A stretch of 64,000 nucleotides of DNA from an uncultured Chitinophagaceae bacterium (GCA_947085175.1 CAMTVJ010000004.1:150541-214540); one strand, 5' to 3'. Shown: positions 3,938 through 59,712, counted from the stretch's first letter. A program made the numbers and translations. Notes: a model not told the origin generated them from the sequence alone.

Positions 3938-4173
3938 AATAAATAAGTTTAAAAATCCTACTCGTTTGGCTTTTCGGTTTCGCCCCGTTTTTTTAAGTAG
4001 TATCTGGACTCTACTATTAAAAGTTTCATTTCAGAGATTTAAAATACAAAAAGATTCTAATAAATGTAAAAAATATATTTGTTAGAATAGGATTCCATTT
4101 ACTAAATAGGAATAAAGGATTTATCCTCAAGTCGATTGTGCTTTTAATTTGCCTTAAGTGTCATTAATGATTA

Positions 4174-6874: not shown

Positions 6875-6935
6875 ATATCAAAAATCAAAATTCAAAAAAA
6901 AATAAACTACTAAATTACAACTCATCATTCATCCT

Positions 6936-7550
6936 TCAATTCTTATTTCTCTTAATAGTACATCCAACACTTTTGCTTTCCTTAACTGTAACTTCTTTGC
7001 CGGTAACCATTTCATTAATGGCTTCTTGCAAATGAATACGCTTAATAGCTGAAATATCAGAAGGGCTATCATCAATAGCTCCATGATAAGTTAATACCAT
7101 GTCCTTATTAAACAAGAAACACTCTGGTGTACGATTGGCGCCAAAGGCATCAGCCACTTCGTGGTTTTTATCAATTACATAACTCCATTTGTAATTTTGA
7201 TCTTTGGCGTATGCCTTCATCGCATCATAGCTATCATCTTTACTACGGTAGGCTTCATTACTGTTTAAAATGATTACACCTACTTTATTTTTGTCGGCAA
7301 ATTCACTTATGGCTATAGTGCGTTCCTGGTTTTTAATTACATAGGGACAGGTATTGCAACTGAACATCACTAAAACGCCATTTTTTTTCATGGCATCCTT
7401 CATCGAAATTTCTTTGCCAGAAATATCCTGCATTTTTAAGTTGGATTTTGGCATGTTGCTACCAATTTGTAATGGGTCGCCAAATGTAAATGCCAGTGCA
7501 GCAACTGAAGCTAAAGCTGTAAAAGCCAATATTATCTTTTTCATAATCAT
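6936..7550 (-). CDS. thioredoxin-fold (redoxin/AhpC-TSA-like) protein, secreted
   Basis: 204 aa with a signal peptide and the CxxC motif 'FSCNTCPYV'. Confidence 0.75.
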   Translation of the reverse strand: MIMKKIILAFTALASVAALAFTFGDPLQIGSNMPKSNLKMQDISGKEISMKDAMKKNGVLVMFSCNTCPYVIKNQERTIAISEFADKNKVGVIILNSNEAYRSKDDSYDAMKAYAKDQNYKWSYVIDKNHEVADAFGANRTPECFLFNKDMVLTYHGAIDDSPSDISAIKRIHLQEAINEMVTGKEVTVKESKSVGCTIKRNKN

Positions 7551-7593
7551 CTTTTTTTAAAGGTAAGCATTAGGGAATGTGATAAAAAACCGC

Positions 7594-8568
7594 TTATGTA
7601 TTTTTTAATGAATTTAGCAATGCTTTTTCATCAGCAAATCGTTTAGCCGCAATTAATTTCAAAGACTTGATACTTACGTTAAGCTCGAAGCCTATTAGTA
7701 GCACTAAGGAATTGATGAAAATAAGGGCCATTAAAACTATTATAGTACCAATAGAGCCATAGAGGGCATTGTATCGGCCAAACTCATTTACAAAATAAGA
7801 AAATCCAACAGAGGATAAAATACTTAGAAAAGTAGCCAATATAGCACCTGGTGAAATCAGTTTCCATTTTTCATTTACTGCGGGAGCATATTTATAAATA
7901 AAGGCAATGGAATAAAAGACAAGTGCTACAATAAAAAACCATCGAACATAGGCAATAAGGTTTAACCAAAAATCACTTTTTAAGCCAAACCATTTTAATA
8001 CGGCTCCCTGGGTAATTAAAAGTATGAGACAGCCCAATACCAATCCAAAAATCAGTACTGTTAAACGGATGGCTATCCAACGGTCGTGCCAGCCCTTTCT
8101 TTTTTGAAAGCCTAAATATTCTTTATTGAAAGAACGCATTAAACCCATCATAGCATTGGATGCAAAAAATAAAGCCAGTAAAAGCCCAAAAGATAATAAG
8201 CCAAAAACCGGGGTTTTAAAAAAGGTGTCATCAATAAAATTGATAACCGTTTTATTAAACCCTTCAGCCGGAACTATATCTTTAATAACGAGCGAAAGCT
8301 GTTTTAATATTTCCTTTTTTTTAATAAAGGGTAAATTGGGAATAAGCGTGAATAAAAAAAGAAAGGAGGGCGGGATAGCCATAATAAAATTATAGGCCAC
8401 TGCAGATGCCCGTTCGGTTAAACCAATTGTTTTTACTTGCTTGATGAAAAAACTAGCAACATCATATAGAGGTACTCCTTCAAAACCGGGCAAATACCAA
8501 TGCTTGCTTTTGATGATGAGAAAAGCAATGGGTGTTTTTGTAATTAGTATACGTTCCAGTTTGGTCAT
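7594..8568 (-). CDS. YihY/BrkB family membrane protein
   Basis: 324 aa with 6 TM segments. 'ERASAVAYNFIMAIPP' and the C-terminal pattern are typical of the YihY family. Confidence 0.75.
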   Translation of the reverse strand: MTKLERILITKTPIAFLIIKSKHWYLPGFEGVPLYDVASFFIKQVKTIGLTERASAVAYNFIMAIPPSFLFLFTLIPNLPFIKKKEILKQLSLVIKDIVPAEGFNKTVINFIDDTFFKTPVFGLLSFGLLLALFFASNAMMGLMRSFNKEYLGFQKRKGWHDRWIAIRLTVLIFGLVLGCLILLITQGAVLKWFGLKSDFWLNLIAYVRWFFIVALVFYSIAFIYKYAPAVNEKWKLISPGAILATFLSILSSVGFSYFVNEFGRYNALYGSIGTIIVLMALIFINSLVLLIGFELNVSIKSLKLIAAKRFADEKALLNSLKNT

Positions 8569-17890: not shown

Positions 17891-18940
17891 ATGCTAAAAA
17901 ATATATTACATAAGATTACGAATTGGGAGGCCTGGCCTTTTAAGTTATTGTATGCCCCAATTACTCCCATGTGGTTTTGGTATATGATTAAATCAAGATC
18001 GGTTTGGTTTTTTACACCAAGTAATCCAAAAATTACATTTGGCGGTATGGATGGTGAACCCAAAAAGGAAATGTACGATCTGCTTCCTAAGCATTTGTAT
18101 CCGACAACGTTTAGTATTTTACCGCCACAGAATTTTGATTTTGTAAAAACAGATTTACAAAAAAGCGGCATTCAATACCCTTTTATTGTTAAACCCGAAG
18201 TGGCTTGTCAGGGAATTTTGTTCAGAAAAATTGATAGTGAAGCAGAATTACAAAATTATCATTCAAAAATTCCGGTTGAATATATGGTACAGGAAATGGT
18301 GAATTACCCCATGGAAGTGAGTGTATTTTATATTCGTCATCCAAAAGATTCGAAAGGGATAGTTACTGGTTTTTTACATAAAATACCTTTGCAGGTAGTT
18401 GGGAATGGAAAAAATACTTTGGAAGAATTGGTTAAGCAACATCCAAAAGGGGAAAAAAGAATGGATGAAATGTACTCTAAACATAAGAACCGTTGGACAG
18501 AAATCATTCCGGAAGGCCAAAAATACATGTTAAGTTATGCAGCCAACCACAACAGAGGTGCTCAGTTTGTTGACTTAAAAGAACATATCGACGACAAATT
18601 GGTATCAATGTTTGATGAAATAAGTGTTGATATCAATGATTTTTTTTATGGACGTTATGATATTATGTGTGCCAATGTTGAGGATTTAAAAAACAAAAAG
18701 AACTTTTCAATTTTGGAGTTTAATGGTTGCGGTGCCGAGCCAAATCATTTTTACGACACGGGTTATACCTTACTTGGTGCCTATAGGGAAATTTTAATGC
18801 ATTGGAAAGCATTATATCAAATTTGTAAATACAATAGTCAACAGGGTATTAAGCCATGGCCTTTTCAAAAGGGAAAGAAATTTTTAGCTCAGATAAAAGC
18901 ACATTTTAAACTGATTCGGGAGGTGGATGAAAAGATTTAG
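17891..18940 (+). CDS. uncharacterised ATP-grasp-like protein
   Basis: 349 aa. 'FIVKPEVACQGILFRKI' resembles the ATP-grasp Lys strand and 'ILEFNGCGAEPNH' resembles the E-x-N Mg/ATP site. N-terminus is hydrophobic. Its stop overlaps the stop of the convergent oxidoreductase gene (TTAG, 18937-18940). Confidence 0.55.
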   Translation: MLKNILHKITNWEAWPFKLLYAPITPMWFWYMIKSRSVWFFTPSNPKITFGGMDGEPKKEMYDLLPKHLYPTTFSILPPQNFDFVKTDLQKSGIQYPFIVKPEVACQGILFRKIDSEAELQNYHSKIPVEYMVQEMVNYPMEVSVFYIRHPKDSKGIVTGFLHKIPLQVVGNGKNTLEELVKQHPKGEKRMDEMYSKHKNRWTEIIPEGQKYMLSYAANHNRGAQFVDLKEHIDDKLVSMFDEISVDINDFFYGRYDIMCANVEDLKNKKNFSILEFNGCGAEPNHFYDTGYTLLGAYREILMHWKALYQICKYNSQQGIKPWPFQKGKKFLAQIKAHFKLIREVDEKI

Positions 18941-20076
18941 AATGATTTTCCGTGTGTTTGCTTTATTAATGATTTTGTAAGGGTAGGAAATTTTTTCATT
19001 ACCCAAATAAAAAAGTTTGTGATCCAAACTTTTCCAAACAAAGCCTGTATCCACCTGCCGGCTTGTAATCTTTTACTGAATGTCGATTTCCACTGCAGTA
19101 TATACCCTGCTTCCAAACTTGCTCTTTTTATCTTTCCAGACAAAAACTCATGAATAAATCCAGAAGCAATTTTGCTGCTTTGCAATGCCATACTCATACC
19201 ATTACCACAAAGCGGTGTTATCATGCCAGCTGCATCTCCCAACATCAAAATGTGATTTTCAACCAATGTTTTTTTGTTGAATGATATTTGGGAAATAGTT
19301 ACCGGTGAATCGTATAATTTTTCACAGTTTTCAAAAATGCTTTTAAGATGGGGATTTTTTTGCAGAATATTCTTTTCCATCGCATCAATGGAATTATTGT
19401 TGGCTTTCAGGTTTTCGGCATTGGTTAAATAACATATACAATATTTATCTTCTTCAATCTTTGAAATGCCACAATAGCCGTTATCGAAATTATGCAGAGC
19501 AATGGTATCGTCTGGAAATATTGTTTTGACATGGTATTTTATGCCGATATAGTTATTGAGTTTGTTGGGCTTTTGATTAGCGAAAGGCCGGTTCCATTTT
19601 ACATCCAGGTTACTGCGTTTGCCAAAACTACCACAACATATCCGGCATATAAAATCGCCCTTTGATGTTTGTAAATGAGATTCATCATTTAAAAAGATCA
19701 CATCATTTACTTTACAATTATCAAACAGGTACACGTTATTTGTTATAGCGATTTCTTTTAGAGCTGCATCAAGTTTATACCTACTGATGCCAAAACCGCC
19801 TAATGGTAATGTTTGCTGTAATTGGTTCCCGTTGGGGGCTGTTACAATTAGTTTAGTAAGAATGGGTAATTGCATTTTAGTGAGTGAAAGGCCCAGGCTC
19901 TCTATAAAATCCCAGCTTTCAAGACTGATGTATTCGCCACAAACTTTATGAAAAGGATATTGTTCTTTTTCGAATAAGGCCACCTCATAACCAAGTTTTG
20001 CCAATTGAATGGATAAAGCCAGGCCTGCAAGGCCGCCTCCAATAATACAGGCATCATATGTTTGCCGTTCAATCAT
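18937..20076 (-). CDS. FAD-dependent oxidoreductase (aromatic hydroxylase / geranylgeranyl-reductase-like)
   Basis: 379 aa with the dinucleotide fold 'IIGGGLAGLALS...FEKE' and 'GDAAGMITPLCGNG'. Its ATG region overlaps the methyltransferase stop. Confidence 0.8.
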   Translation of the reverse strand: MIERQTYDACIIGGGLAGLALSIQLAKLGYEVALFEKEQYPFHKVCGEYISLESWDFIESLGLSLTKMQLPILTKLIVTAPNGNQLQQTLPLGGFGISRYKLDAALKEIAITNNVYLFDNCKVNDVIFLNDESHLQTSKGDFICRICCGSFGKRSNLDVKWNRPFANQKPNKLNNYIGIKYHVKTIFPDDTIALHNFDNGYCGISKIEEDKYCICYLTNAENLKANNNSIDAMEKNILQKNPHLKSIFENCEKLYDSPVTISQISFNKKTLVENHILMLGDAAGMITPLCGNGMSMALQSSKIASGFIHEFLSGKIKRASLEAGYILQWKSTFSKRLQAGRWIQALFGKVWITNFFIWVMKKFPTLTKSLIKQTHGKSF

Positions 20077-20776
20077 TACTGCAAATGATTAAATGCCGGA
20101 AAGCCCATTTCCATTTGATAGAAATATTTTTGATACTGGCTGTTTTAAAAAGATGAATCCATTCTTTTCTTTTAAATCCTCTTGCTACAGATAGCGGGGC
20201 ATCATTTTTTACCAGATAGGATCTTGAGAATAAAGCAGTGATCCATTTAATAAAGTAATAAGCCAAATGATGCCGATGAAGATCATTAATAAAAAAACCT
20301 TTTGTTGCATTTAGTTTCATCCATTGTAGCATAGAGGTTAATTCCTTTTCAGTAAAATGATGACAAAATAGTGATGAGAAAATGAAATCGGGTTTGGCAT
20401 CTCCAAAATCTACTTCCCTATAATCATTAGTGATCCAGGTAGAATTTAATGTTGCAAATTGCTCACGTGCAAAATCAATGCATTCCTTTTTAATATCAAT
20501 ACCAATAAAGTTGACACTTATCTTTTTTTTGAAACAATAGTTGTTGATGGCTTTTAAATTATCGCCACCACCACAACCAATTTCACAAATGCAGATTTGT
20601 TTTAAGTCTGCATGTTTTGTAGCCAATGCATGTACACCGGCAATGGTTATTTTATGTCCACCTAGGTATTTATTGATTGTATTCAACTCCTTCATGTTTT
20701 GCTTAATATCAATAAAAGGAATAGTTTCATTGTCCAGCAGTTCTTTCTTATATGATCTGGTTGTAAGATTAATCAT
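20069..20776 (-). CDS. class I SAM-dependent methyltransferase
   Basis: 235 aa with motif I 'ICEIGCGGGD'. Its ATG lies within the last codons of the PKS gene (8-nt overlap). Confidence 0.85.
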   Translation of the reverse strand: MINLTTRSYKKELLDNETIPFIDIKQNMKELNTINKYLGGHKITIAGVHALATKHADLKQICICEIGCGGGDNLKAINNYCFKKKISVNFIGIDIKKECIDFAREQFATLNSTWITNDYREVDFGDAKPDFIFSSLFCHHFTEKELTSMLQWMKLNATKGFFINDLHRHHLAYYFIKWITALFSRSYLVKNDAPLSVARGFKRKEWIHLFKTASIKNISIKWKWAFRHLIICSND

Positions 20777-21869
20777 AAGAAGCGATAAAAGTTTCCATGG
20801 TTAGGCCGGGGCCAAAAGCAGCCGCAAATATTTTAGATGTATGTAGCTGTTGATCTTTTTGCAGATCATCAAAAATTTTTTGTAAAACAAATAAGATGGT
20901 TGGGGAGCTCATATTGCCATAATCATTTAACGTTTGGTAGGAGTAACGCAGATAATCTTTAGGTATCGAAATGCTTTTTTCAATGGCCTCCAGAATTTTT
21001 TTTCCGCCAGGATGAATACACCAGTGTGTTATTTCTTCTTTGGAAAGAGATGCATGTTGGAGTGCTTTTTTAACTAAGCCATCAAAATCTTCCTTTACCA
21101 GGTCTGGTACATAACCGGATAACGTCATTAAAAAACCCTTTGATGAAAGTTTCCAGGACATATCATTTTTGCCTTTAAAAGCTACATCTGAAAAAAAACT
21201 GTTGATGTTGATTCCATTAGAAGGAGATTTTGCAGACTGTACAAAAACGGCAGCGCAGCCATCTGCAAATAAAAGGGTAGAAGTGATATTGTCTACTGAA
21301 ATTTCTTTTTGAAAATGCAGGGTACAAAATTCTGTACATACAATGATAACATTTGCTTTTTCATCAGCTTTGCAAATTGCATCAGCTAGCTTTAGAGCAT
21401 GAATGGCTGCATAGCAACCCATAAAATTAATTGAAGTACGGAAAATATTTCTGGGCAAATTCATTTTCTCCATAATTTCCAGGTCAAGTCCCGGGGCACT
21501 CATACCTGTACAACTTACAGTTATTAAATGCGTCAATTCATCTTTAGTGATTTTTTCTTTTATACATTTTTCTATTGTTGTTACAGAAATATCTGCAGCA
21601 TTGTTGGCATACCATTGCATTCTTTTTTCCAAGGAGGGAAATGGTTCAAGATCGGCTGATGTAGAGTAAAATTGTCTGTTAGCAGCAGCTAAGCTATAGT
21701 CTGGTATAATGGAATACCTGGTTTGAATACCACTATGCCGGTATAAGAATTTTAATTTACGGCTTTCGGTTGCATCATTACAATAAATTTTATCTGCAAA
21801 ATCTGCGATAGCATTTTGTTCATGTTGATGGGATGGCACTTCGGTTGCTATGGAAATTATCTTGCTCAA
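20769..21869 (-). CDS. type III polyketide synthase (chalcone/stilbene synthase superfamily)
   Basis: 366 aa. Cys in 'VSCTGMSAPGLD', His in 'WCIHPGGKKIL', Asn in 'YGNMSSPTILF', and C-terminal 'AFGPGLT'. The TTG start shares TTGA with the UbiA stop. Confidence 0.9.
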   Translation of the reverse strand: MSKIISIATEVPSHQHEQNAIADFADKIYCNDATESRKLKFLYRHSGIQTRYSIIPDYSLAAANRQFYSTSADLEPFPSLEKRMQWYANNAADISVTTIEKCIKEKITKDELTHLITVSCTGMSAPGLDLEIMEKMNLPRNIFRTSINFMGCYAAIHALKLADAICKADEKANVIIVCTEFCTLHFQKEISVDNITSTLLFADGCAAVFVQSAKSPSNGININSFFSDVAFKGKNDMSWKLSSKGFLMTLSGYVPDLVKEDFDGLVKKALQHASLSKEEITHWCIHPGGKKILEAIEKSISIPKDYLRYSYQTLNDYGNMSSPTILFVLQKIFDDLQKDQQLHTSKIFAAAFGPGLTMETFIASYD

Positions 21870-22672
21870 TATTTTTCAAGTATTAATAAAGTTATAAACG
21901 CACAATTACTGCAAAAGGATGCTAACATGTTCATGCGCATGGTGTTTTTATAATTTGCTGATTCAGTATTTGTAATTACTTTTTTAAACCACCATAAAAA
22001 AAAGATAAGTATTGGAATAAAAAAAATCTGTATAATATAAAAGTTAATTTGTTGTAAACCTAGGATCAGGTAAAAGCCTAGGCTGCACATGGCAAATACA
22101 TATACTATGGCAGTAAAAATAAAAGTGCCTTTATAACCCAACAAACTGCTAAGTGATATAACTCCATCTGCTTTGTCCTGTTTGTGCTGATAAATTTGCG
22201 TTAATGGATAAAAACTTCCAATCAGCAGAATGGCTGTAAGCATTCCGATTACCGGAACATTAATTATTTTTTCAATACTACTGCCATGCATCACCAAAAA
22301 AAAAGTTAAACCTCCCTGAATGAGAACAACGGTTAAATAGCCGATCACCGGATATTTTTTTAACCTGATGCCCCTGTAACTGTAGGCACGTGAAGCAAGT
22401 ATATAACAAAGGATACCAATAAGGAAATACAAACTGATAAAGCAGCTGAGTATTATGGCAATTACGTCTAATATTACAGTGATATAGAATAATTGTTTAG
22501 TTGGTTGCATTGGATCCTTAATACCTCCAATGCTGTCCGTATCTCTGTCCATATAACTGTTATAACCGTTGCTGGCCGGGTAAACCAATATATGCAGAAT
22601 GCAAAATATTAATATTGTATGTTGCACATGTATAGCTATAGTTTGGCTTAAAGCAAACCAGTAAATGGGCAT
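21866..22672 (-). CDS. UbiA-family aromatic prenyltransferase
   Basis: Polytopic, with the 'NGYNSYMDRDTD' (NxxxDxxxD) motif. The frame stays open for 20 more codons upstream ('YFLIKTSTIQLLRFHFSFFL') without an ATG/GTG/TTG, so the true start is uncertain. Confidence 0.8.
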   Translation of the reverse strand: MPIYWFALSQTIAIHVQHTILIFCILHILVYPASNGYNSYMDRDTDSIGGIKDPMQPTKQLFYITVILDVIAIILSCFISLYFLIGILCYILASRAYSYRGIRLKKYPVIGYLTVVLIQGGLTFFLVMHGSSIEKIINVPVIGMLTAILLIGSFYPLTQIYQHKQDKADGVISLSSLLGYKGTFIFTAIVYVFAMCSLGFYLILGLQQINFYIIQIFFIPILIFFLWWFKKVITNTESANYKNTMRMNMLASFCSNCAFITLLILEKY

Positions 22673-22936
22673 TAGAAAAAAAGAAAAATGAAACCGTAAT
22701 AGTTGTATCGTTGAAGTCTTAATCAGAAAATACTATTTGTTTAAAAGTACAATCTTATTTAGTAATGTTTTAAACCCTTCTGTAATTAATTACGTATATA
22801 GAAAATATAAGTTAAATTAATGTAAAAATAATTTAAGTAAAAAATTTGGGTAGGGGTTGCTTTTGATGCCATTAGTATTGGCGTAACGTTAACTTAAAAA
22901 AATTAAAGAAAGATAGATTTTAATTATATTTAGTAT

Positions 22937-23482
22937 ATGAAAAAAATAGTCACCTTAATTGTTCCTTTTTTAATATTTACTAATTTTATAACAGCACAAA
23001 CAACTTATACGCCTGTTGATGCTGATAGTAAAGTTCATTTTGTAATCAGAAATTTTGGTATTAAAACCGGTGGAGATTTTTCGGGCCTTAAAGGCAGTAT
23101 TCATTTTAATCCTACTGATTTAAATGCATCTTCTTTTAATGTTACGGTTGATGCCAAAACAATTGATACGGATAATTCCTCTAGGGATGGCCATCTTCGC
23201 AAGGCAGATTACTTTGATGTTGACAAATTTAATACTATACAATTTAAAAGTACTAAAATCACCAAATCTACAATCGAAGGCAGGTTTTACATTTTCGCAA
23301 ACCTTACCATAAAAGGAATAACCAAACCTGTTGAATTTGCATTTGCTGCAACTCCTAAAGATGGAGGTTTTGTTTTTAATGGAGAGTTTGACATTAATCG
23401 CCGTGATTTTGGAGTTGGCGGAAGCAGTATCAGCATATCTGATAATTTAACGGTTTCACTTTCTGTGGTTACCAAAAAATAA
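22937..23482 (+). CDS. YceI-family (polyisoprenoid-binding) periplasmic protein
   Basis: 181 aa with a signal peptide. 'NSSRDGHLRKADYFDV' and the lipocalin-like beta pattern are typical of YceI. Confidence 0.8.
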   Translation: MKKIVTLIVPFLIFTNFITAQTTYTPVDADSKVHFVIRNFGIKTGGDFSGLKGSIHFNPTDLNASSFNVTVDAKTIDTDNSSRDGHLRKADYFDVDKFNTIQFKSTKITKSTIEGRFYIFANLTIKGITKPVEFAFAATPKDGGFVFNGEFDINRRDFGVGGSSISISDNLTVSLSVVTKK

Positions 23483-34652: not shown

Positions 34653-34726
34653 TGACCGCGTTAGGATTCAAACCTAAAACCTTCTGATCCGTAGTCAGAT
34701 GCTCTATTCAGTTGAGCTACGCAGCC
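34653..34726 (-). tRNA. tRNA-Arg (anticodon ACG)
   Basis: Folded by hand as a cloverleaf: acceptor GGCTGCG/CGCGGTC, D-arm GCTC..GAGC, anticodon stem TCTGA/TCAGA with loop CTACGGA, T-arm TTAGG-TTTGAAT-CCTAA. No encoded CCA. Confidence 0.88.
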
Positions 34727-59639: not shown

Positions 59640-59712
59640 TGAACTGGCAGGGACTCGAACCCTGGGCCCATACATTAAAAGTGTATTGCTCTACCAACTG
59701 AGCTACCAATTC
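59640..59712 (-). tRNA. tRNA-Lys (anticodon TTT)
   Basis: Folded by hand as a cloverleaf: acceptor GAATTGG/CCAGTTC, D-arm GCTC..GAGC, anticodon stem ATACA/TGTAT with loop CTTTTAA, T-arm CAGGG-TTCGAGT-CCCTG. Confidence 0.88.

Follow-up and report, generated by a model that had tools for sequence, protein, structure and literature searches.

A conserved Bacteroidota operon joining a UbiA-type prenyltransferase to a type III polyketide synthase cassette, with a prenylated phenolic lipid or quinone as its probable product

We analyzed a 64,000-nucleotide stretch of DNA from an uncultured Chitinophagaceae bacterium (GCA_947085175.1 CAMTVJ010000004.1:150541-214540; the window) that carries on its minus strand four chained genes, encoding a UbiA-superfamily membrane prenyltransferase (hereafter UbiA), a type III polyketide synthase (PKS), an S-adenosylmethionine (SAM)-dependent methyltransferase and a flavin adenine dinucleotide (FAD)-binding flavoprotein. 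The UbiA gene is strongly linked to the PKS gene in the Chitinophagaceae, in other orders of the Bacteroidota and in metagenomes. We consider the product of the operon to be, probably, a prenylated, methylated alkyl(hydro)quinone or resorcinol membrane lipid. An initial annotation of this DNA had predicted a prenylated phenolic lipid or quinone for which it knew of no characterized example in Bacteroidota; we find that interpretation supported in part, with the class of compound probable but not new in kind and with a flavoprotein that is not a classical hydroxylase by sequence.

In the pathway we propose, the PKS would extend an acyl starter, probably a fatty acyl, with malonyl units, and an aldol cyclization would yield an alkylresorcinol. 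The methyltransferase would then methylate the ring or a ring hydroxyl, and the flavoprotein would hydroxylate the ring to give a methoxy-hydroquinone that could be oxidized to a benzoquinone. UbiA, acting in the membrane, would use a prenyl diphosphate to prenylate the ring, either at a carbon or at a hydroxyl. Overall, the pathway would join the chemistry of the srsABC and pkqABC operons to a step of the type assigned to agqD in the agqABCD cluster of Actinoplanes missouriensis.

Operon structure and gene linkage

The listing of open reading frames (ORFs) gives four consecutive minus-strand frames at 21866-22672 (as defined by an ATG), 20769-21869 (opening on TTG), 20069-20776 and 18937-20076, and a direct reading of the sequence confirmed the overlaps that the initial annotation had described. 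Read as the reverse complement, the TTG start of the PKS gene (21869-21867) overlaps the TGA stop of the UbiA gene (21868-21866) as TTGA. The PKS and methyltransferase genes share the 8 nucleotides ATGATTAA (20776-20769), and the methyltransferase and flavoprotein genes share another 8, ATGATTGA (20076-20069). The four enzyme classes assigned earlier were also upheld by Pfam matches far beyond chance, and the following motifs cited for them were found: 'EIGCGGGD' in the methyltransferase, 'GGGLAG' in the flavoprotein, 'IHPGG' and 'GNMSSPT' in the PKS and N56-x3-D60-x3-D64 in UbiA. The PKS, methyltransferase and flavoprotein genes are adjacent and co-oriented, as in operons of the srsABC/pkqABC type.

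Our conservation scan used PKS motifs on one genome per GTDB species; at least 597 species genomes matched, about 8000 related proteins were scored, and the Chitinophagaceae counts given here are for the best 80 of these at least 597 relatives. All 80 belong to the Chitinophagaceae, with PKS identities of 54-79%, and the closest PKS homologs carry the name Ferruginibacter sp. Cultured species with the cluster include Ferruginibacter paludis and Ginsengibacter hankyongi (L018, L049). The order UbiA-PKS-methyltransferase-flavoprotein is kept in 80 of 80 species loci where the contig allows. The PKS gene starts with TTG in 79 of the 80 and with GTG in one, and it overlaps the UbiA gene by 4 nucleotides in 41 loci and by 8 in 30 (together 71 of 78 junctions); the PKS and methyltransferase genes overlap by 8 nucleotides in 60 loci. 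Because this weak TTG start is conserved and overlaps the UbiA stop, the arrangement suggests that translation of the PKS is coupled, perhaps obligatorily, to that of UbiA.

Outside the family, Solitalea (Sphingobacteriales) and Catalinimonas (Cytophagales) share this four-gene order. A rearranged linkage is present in a Bacteroidia metagenome-assembled genome (MAG) and a Cyclobacteriaceae-like contig (L090, L092), where a methyltransferase-PKS pair diverges from the UbiA gene and a flavoprotein gene lies nearby. In addition, one protein of 652 residues (P0122) is an apparent UbiA-PKS fusion in which a complete type III PKS comes after the UbiA domain. When metagenomes were scanned with a profile built from distant members of the UbiA subfamily, 80 loci were returned, 37 of them with 1.3 kb or more of sequence to each side, and a type III PKS stood beside the UbiA-subfamily gene in 31 of the 37. 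With the two genes kept together in all of these sets, the UbiA-PKS linkage is strong, contrary to the lack of co-conservation that would have refuted the prediction of the initial annotation.

Two variants of the locus are also worth recording. An AP_endonuc_2/xylose-isomerase-like gene for a triosephosphate isomerase (TIM)-barrel protein stands between the UbiA and flavoprotein genes at 6905-7840 (minus strand) of L092 and at 5122-5508 of L112; this gene of the divergent form of the cluster recalls EboE of the ebo cluster. The Hymenobacter-type UbiA loci (Hymenobacter jejuensis, L084, and L118, L124 and L158) have no PKS within 6 kb. They keep a 303-residue upstream neighbor (4987-5898 in L084) with no Pfam or NCBIfam match, in which motifs of SAM-dependent methyltransferases (ELGAGAGGG, FSAFHHF) resembling those of the window methyltransferase can be seen by eye.

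The four enzymes and their neighbors

The initial annotation had begun the UbiA gene at 22735, which is ruled out by the in-frame TAG at 22735-22733. An exhaustive HMMER search returned homologs of about 286-300 residues, and the methionine encoded by the ATG at 22672 aligns near their residue 20. In all 80 relatives the 18 codons upstream of this ATG, LIKTSTIQLLRFHFSFFL, are conserved at the protein level and show synonymous changes; one of them encodes the subfamily-invariant Arg11. Where the gene would start by homology, the majority of relatives carry ATG or TTG; the window has CTG instead, as do L001-L003, its nearest relatives, and also L027 if a 1-nucleotide indel is allowed. Given that the upstream codons are conserved as protein and that the homologous start position carries CTG, the gene most likely starts at CTG 22726-22724 and encodes 286 residues (21866-22726), the ATG at 22672 being an internal Met19. 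An ORF caller restricted to ATG, GTG and TTG removes 18 residues from UbiA, among them the invariant Arg11.

UbiA matches Pfam PF01040 (5e-18, 65.6 bits against a gathering score of 34.2), but none of the curated NCBIfam models covers it, the best being PRK12884 with 37.4 bits against a cutoff of 269. Identity as MenA (15.9 bits, cutoff 555) or as EboC (no EboC match in the model scan) was considered and rejected. Judged by these comparisons, UbiA belongs to a distinct subfamily outside every curated model. The subfamily is compact, with 681 of 1.84 billion cluster representatives found by HMMER at E <= 1e-3 and 205 at 1e-30, mainly in the Bacteroidota. In an alignment of 56 members N56, D60 and D62 of the first Asp-rich motif are invariant and D64 is not, while the second motif is Q180xxxD184, with an invariant Gln in place of the first Asp of DxxxD. 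The conserved positions are N56, D60, D62, R121, K123 and D184, and the subfamily signatures read LRxPFS, YPASNGYNSYxDxD, YSxxxxRLK, QG and YPLTQIYQHxxDxxxG. The AlphaFold2 (AF2) model has a mean predicted local distance difference test (pLDDT) score of 97.4 and the full nine-helix UbiA fold; Foldseek aligned it to AfUbiA (4tq4) with a template-modeling (TM) score of 0.75 and also matched digeranylgeranylglyceryl phosphate synthase (DGGGPS), ApUbiA and UBIAD1. Because the model is confident and holds the full fold, we treat UbiA as a predicted active prenyltransferase. A single-sequence search of the PDB gave no informative match for UbiA, tblastn against 72,556 plasmids gave none at all, and a preprint that surveys how isoprenoid quinones are distributed has nothing on this subfamily.

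The PKS has both Chal_sti_synt domains, the N domain scoring 84.7 bits (8e-24) and the C domain 87.9 bits (9e-25) where the gathering cutoff is 27, and its best PDB matches reach 7e-42. The initial annotation had located the catalytic residues in 'SCTGMSAPG', 'IHPGG' and 'GNMSSPT'. Alignment to solved type III PKSs supports the last two, as His286 and Asn319, and places the nucleophile elsewhere, at Cys152 in 'NFMGCYAA' (7cb3 'NFMGCAAA', 4b0n 'GFMGCAAA'); Cys120 falls at the position of Thr132 of chalcone synthase (CHS). The Cys152/His286/Asn319 triad is complete, is invariant in 14 orthologs and is conserved in the PKSs of cassettes from other phyla, to which the window PKS is ~36% identical. 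Such PKS-methyltransferase-flavoprotein cassettes, lacking a UbiA gene, appear in the replicon annotations of three species, Deinococcus radiodurans, Psychrobacter urativorans and Microvirga terrae. Trp239 (W239) is likewise invariant and is conserved in all 8 cassette-type PKSs aligned. It aligns without gaps to what we take, by CHS2 numbering, to be Gly256 of CHS, and we infer from this numbering, rather than from the ArsB sequence, that it occupies the position of Trp281 of ArsB. PMC9927152 gives as a rule that this residue is Trp281 in ArsB, which makes resorcinol, and Gly in ArsC, which makes pyrone.

The methyltransferase matches Methyltransf_25 (Pfam, 7e-13) and, below the cutoff of 243, the NCBIfam model PRK06202 (2e-33, 115.8 bits). 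The same model gives 334 bits, above its cutoff, for the Deinococcus cassette methyltransferase and 107-109 bits for those of Psychrobacter and Microvirga. The window protein is 23-29% identical over its full length to these three, with a BLASTP value of 1e-31 to the Microvirga methyltransferase; a single-sequence PDB search with it gave no informative match. On this similarity it belongs to the family of the PKS-methyltransferase-flavoprotein cassettes of other phyla.

The flavoprotein carries GxGxxG at residues 13-18 and matches FAD_binding_3 (Pfam, 4e-9). Its best curated match is TIGR02032 of the geranylgeranyl (GG) reductase superfamily (3e-26, 92.8 bits against a cutoff of 158.8). When a profile of 11 orthologs was compared with the PDB, phenol and pyrrole halogenases led (5buk at 9e-25, ChlB4, PltA, Bmp2, CmlS), followed by a flavin monooxygenase and a digeranylgeranylglycerophospholipid (DGGGPL) reductase (2e-13). 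Neither the halogenase motif WxWxIP nor the YxWxFP motif of geranylgeranyl reductases (GGRs) was found in the protein, whose aligned segment is 'GYCGISK'. The catalytic Lys of halogenases is not conserved either, with K, H or R at that position across the orthologs, and of the GGR motif 'CGG' only the Cys is retained, within an invariant 'VCGEY'. By sequence, then, this is a GG-reductase-superfamily/halogenase-like protein without the signature motifs of either group, and not a classical group A hydroxylase of the UbiH/SrsC style. The Psychrobacter cassette, which has no prenyltransferase, encodes a flavoprotein of the same TIGR02032-like type, weakly similar to that of the window (24% identity over 322 residues, 5e-9); the Deinococcus flavoprotein hardly matches at all. 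Since the same type of flavoprotein serves a cassette lacking a prenyltransferase, ring hydroxylation is its most likely role, which we can only infer because the nearest relatives are GG-reductase-superfamily and halogenase-like enzymes.

The genes that flank the operon (LysE, YceI, the ATP-grasp-like ORF and a CCG-domain protein) are kept only in nearer relatives. A YceI-like gene adjoins the UbiA gene in ~17 Chitinophagaceae loci and in L091 (3308-4048), L119, L147, L154 and L172. This gene, of a polyisoprenoid-binding family, recurs beside UbiA with or without a PKS, and its protein may carry the lipid that the operon makes. A paper on the Planctomycetota operon describes a lipid/isoprenoid-binding protein gene in the type III PKS operon of 'Saltatorellus ferox'. 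The ATP-grasp-like ORF belongs to no Pfam family and has weak NCBIfam matches to carbamoyl-phosphate-synthase-like proteins and cyanophycin synthetase. It was rejected as a fifth operon member: it is kept only in a Ferruginibacter-like synteny block, and the 349-residue convergent gene of Solitalea has the same geometry and no similarity. A scan for sigma-70-type promoters and terminators, which omits the promoter types of Bacteroidota, found no enrichment over shuffles, and an Rfam scan found no element near the operon. Away from the operon, and unrelated to it, three Rfam matches in the window reach gathering score: two are tRNA genes and one, with 82.7 bits, is a DUF805 RNA motif.

Table 1. 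Features of the operon, its surroundings and the oxidase-linked loci (window positions unless a contig is named)
Feature	Position	Strand	Basis or remark
ATP-grasp-like ORF, 349 aa	17891-18940	+	Convergent with flavoprotein gene, 4-nucleotide overlap
FAD flavoprotein, 379 aa, presumed ring hydroxylase	18937-20076	-	FAD_binding_3; TIGR02032 below cutoff
Class I SAM-dependent methyltransferase, 235 aa	20069-20776	-	Methyltransf_25, PRK06202
Type III PKS, 366 aa, TTG start	20769-21869	-	Chal_sti_synt N and C domains, PDB matches
PKS Asn319 codon	20913-20915	-	Alignment to solved type III PKSs
PKS His286 codon	21012-21014	-	Alignment to solved type III PKSs
PKS catalytic Cys152 codon	21414-21416	-	Alignment to 7cb3, 4b0n
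UbiA-superfamily membrane prenyltransferase, 286 aa (most likely extent)	21866-22726	-	PF01040, conserved upstream codons, AF2/Foldseek
UbiA first Asp-rich motif, N56-S-Y-M-D60-R-D62-T-D64	22535-22561	-	Alignment of 56 subfamily members
Intergenic region, 210 bp, presumed operon promoter region	22727-22936		Between UbiA and divergent YceI gene
YceI-like protein with N-terminal signal-like segment, possible accessory carrier	22937-23482	+	PF04264, 4e-36
DUF805 RNA motif and two tRNA genes	3951-4019, 34653-34726, 59640-59712	-	Rfam gathering score
UbiA with cydA-cydB-rubrerythrin, apparent operons	L086/L087 6001-9861, L093 6001-9733, L094 2110-5740		Treponema MAG and two other contigs

Product and role weighed against alternatives

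Several points weigh against a prenylated alkylresorcinol or alkylquinone lipid. No product has been reported for any member, and some members of the UbiA subfamily (Hymenobacter, Microscilla and the cydAB-linked ones) have no PKS nearby. The second motif of UbiA is non-canonical in a subfamily that no curated model covers, and the flavoprotein is below cutoff for every curated family, with halogenases and a prenyl reductase as its nearest solved relatives. Finally, the proposed equivalence of W239 and ArsB Trp281 depends on a gapless alignment to a CHS numbering that we presume to be correct.

The alternative that survives best is a respiratory-type prenylquinone, in which the PKS would supply only the aromatic head group, possibly from a short starter, UbiA would add the main polyprenyl tail, and the methyltransferase and flavoprotein would finish a benzoquinone; such a carrier, resembling ubiquinone or plastoquinone but of polyketide origin, would pass electrons to terminal oxidases. 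We hold this to be possible but doubtful. It draws on the neighborhoods of some subfamily members. In three distinct contigs (L086/L087, L093, L094) the UbiA-subfamily gene lies directly upstream of cydA-cydB-rubrerythrin, in L098 and L105 it adjoins rubrerythrin alone, and in L101 UbiA, PKS, methyltransferase and rubrerythrin genes stand together. At 1172-9135 of L100 (64% GC), a monooxygenase-PKS-methyltransferase-UbiA-rubrerythrin series abuts COX3 and COX1, for heme-copper oxidase subunits III and I. In mycobacteria and in Streptomyces, polyketide quinones serve as alternate electron carriers (PMC9927152), and the set of prenyltransferase, methyltransferase and flavin enzyme mirrors ubiquinone biosynthesis. 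A redox-carrier role for the product is plausible given the oxidase, rubrerythrin and YceI neighbors together with the mycobacterial precedent for polyketide quinones. On the other hand, the oxidase-linked members are a minority clade, two of them 70% identical; in the window no oxidase gene adjoins the operon, and the operon holds no prenyl diphosphate synthase. The cassette PKSs of other phyla take long-chain starters, and Chitinophagaceae are reported to use menaquinone-7 (MK-7). If the operon and the UbiA subfamily did make an unrecognized class of isoprenoid quinone, with a head group from the PKS rather than from chorismate and with electron transfer to terminal oxidases as its function, this would explain both the occurrence of UbiA with cytochrome bd, heme-copper oxidase and rubrerythrin in anaerobe-like bacteria such as that of the Treponema MAG and the wide retention of the cluster in aerobic Bacteroidota. 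We put that forward as a tentative idea, on present evidence rather unlikely.

A second alternative changes the role of the flavoprotein, which would be a GGR/MenJ-like prenyl-chain reductase, making the product a methylated alkylresorcinol whose prenyl group is partly saturated, like the dihydrogeranyl group of the Agq products. Its best curated match (TIGR02032) and the match to the solved DGGGPL reductase fit this role, the invariant 'VCGEY' resembles the cysteine motif of GGRs, and no enzyme is known to us to reduce the Agq prenyl chain. However, the GGR motif YxWxFP is absent, the TIGR02032 score is well under its cutoff, and the Psychrobacter cassette has the same type of flavoprotein and no prenyl chain-transferring enzyme, so a prenyl reductase seems improbable and we retain ring hydroxylation.

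It would also seem very unlikely that UbiA is a MenA- or EboC-like housekeeping prenyltransferase that merely neighbors the PKS cassette. Some homologs are auto-named 1,4-dihydroxy-2-naphthoate octaprenyltransferase and some subfamily members lack a nearby PKS, but the MenA score is 16 bits against 555 and EboC is not matched, while the link to the PKS outlasts gene rearrangement, spans several orders, and extends to the apparent fusion P0122, to overlapping stop and start codons at 71 of 78 junctions and to a PKS at 31 of 37 metagenome loci. Least credible of all is a flavin-dependent halogenase yielding a halogenated, methylated polyketide, as in Dictyostelium, where differentiation-inducing factor 1 (DIF-1) is made by a type III PKS, a halogenase and an O-methyltransferase: phenol and pyrrole halogenases are the top solved relatives of the flavoprotein profile (5buk, 9e-25), but WxWxIP is replaced by 'GYCGISK', and orthologs carry K, H or R where halogenases have their essential Lys.

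Very common as this cassette is, neither a product nor a role has been reported for it in the Bacteroidota, a phylum abundant in soil and freshwater. Should the product prove to be a prenylated polyketide quinone, the respiratory or antioxidant lipids of bacteria would gain a second, polyketide origin of the head group, and the UbiA subfamily could be used to trace it through genomes, those of anaerobes with cytochrome bd among them. If it is only a phenolic lipid of the Agq/Srs type, the operon would take an established pathway into another phylum, a useful but unexceptional result, and would still offer a new prenyltransferase subfamily for biocatalysis.

Comparison with known systems

The PKS-methyltransferase-flavoprotein core of the window is the known srsABC/pkqABC/hidABC cassette. 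The srsABC operon of Streptomyces griseus converts an alkylresorcinol to its methyl ether and then to an alkylquinone (PMC9927152, PMC10896814), and pkqABC, from Mycobacterium smegmatis and Streptomyces sp. MNU77, makes polyketide quinones that act as alternate electron carriers in both genera (PMC9927152). In picocyanobacteria hidABC leads to hierridins, and a Planctomycetota methyltransferase-oxidoreductase-type III PKS operon has been shown to make alkylresorcinols (PMC9927152, PMC10896814). In each of these, as in the window, a single operon encodes a type III PKS, a SAM-dependent methyltransferase and a flavin oxidoreductase, and the likeness to srsABC and to the mycobacterial polyketide-quinone operon drawn in the initial annotation holds, with homologous cassettes in other phyla. 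Unlike the window operon, none of the four includes a prenyltransferase, and hidABC and the Planctomycetota operon differ from it in gene order. The flavoproteins differ as well: that of the Deinococcus cassette is a classical UbiH-like monooxygenase, whereas that of the window is GGR/halogenase-like.

Two further systems resemble the operon through UbiA. EboC/Ubi-297 of marine Flavobacteria (PMC9235831) is, like the window UbiA, a UbiA-like aromatic prenyltransferase of Bacteroidota that lies in a conserved operon and is far from MenA and UbiA proper. However, its neighbors are eboA-E without a PKS and its motif is DxxDxxxD, whereas the window UbiA has other neighbors and no EboC-type match. 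The ubiquinone and menaquinone pathways share with the proposed pathway the logic of an aromatic head group that undergoes membrane prenylation, methylation and flavin-dependent hydroxylation (UbiA/MenA, UbiG/UbiE, UbiH/F/I). Their head group comes from chorismate, whereas that of the window product would come from a type III PKS, and none of the three window tailoring proteins reaches the cutoff of a Ubi or Men equivalog.

The closest counterpart is the agqABCD cluster, which in published accounts (PMC4044012, PMC10896814) comprises a type III PKS, a monooxygenase, a methyltransferase and a membrane prenyltransferase. According to the same accounts of Awakawa et al. 2011, the alkylresorcinols made by AgqA are hydroxylated, methylated and O-prenylated to alkyl-O-dihydrogeranyl-methoxyhydroquinones. 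The window and agqABCD thus share four enzyme classes, including a membrane UbiA-like prenyltransferase for a small type III polyketide; they differ in the actinomycete host and the gene order of the latter, and the likeness is one of cluster composition. At the losA locus of Micromonospora endolithica, genes for a UbiA-family prenyltransferase, a methyltransferase, an acyl-CoA dehydrogenase-like protein and a type III PKS stand side by side, with the annotation of the flavoenzyme as acyl-CoA dehydrogenase-like setting it apart from the window flavoprotein. Because agqABCD and the Micromonospora locus combine a prenyltransferase with a PKS, the hybrid polyketide-isoprenoid phenolic lipid is of a kind already known. 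The earlier statement that no characterized product of this kind exists in Bacteroidota stands insofar as our literature search found no paper on a Bacteroidota version, but agqABCD provides its counterpart in kind. The operon, widespread in Bacteroidota, would combine srs/pkq chemistry with an agq-type step, and its prenyltransferase subfamily and its flavoprotein both differ from those of the known systems.

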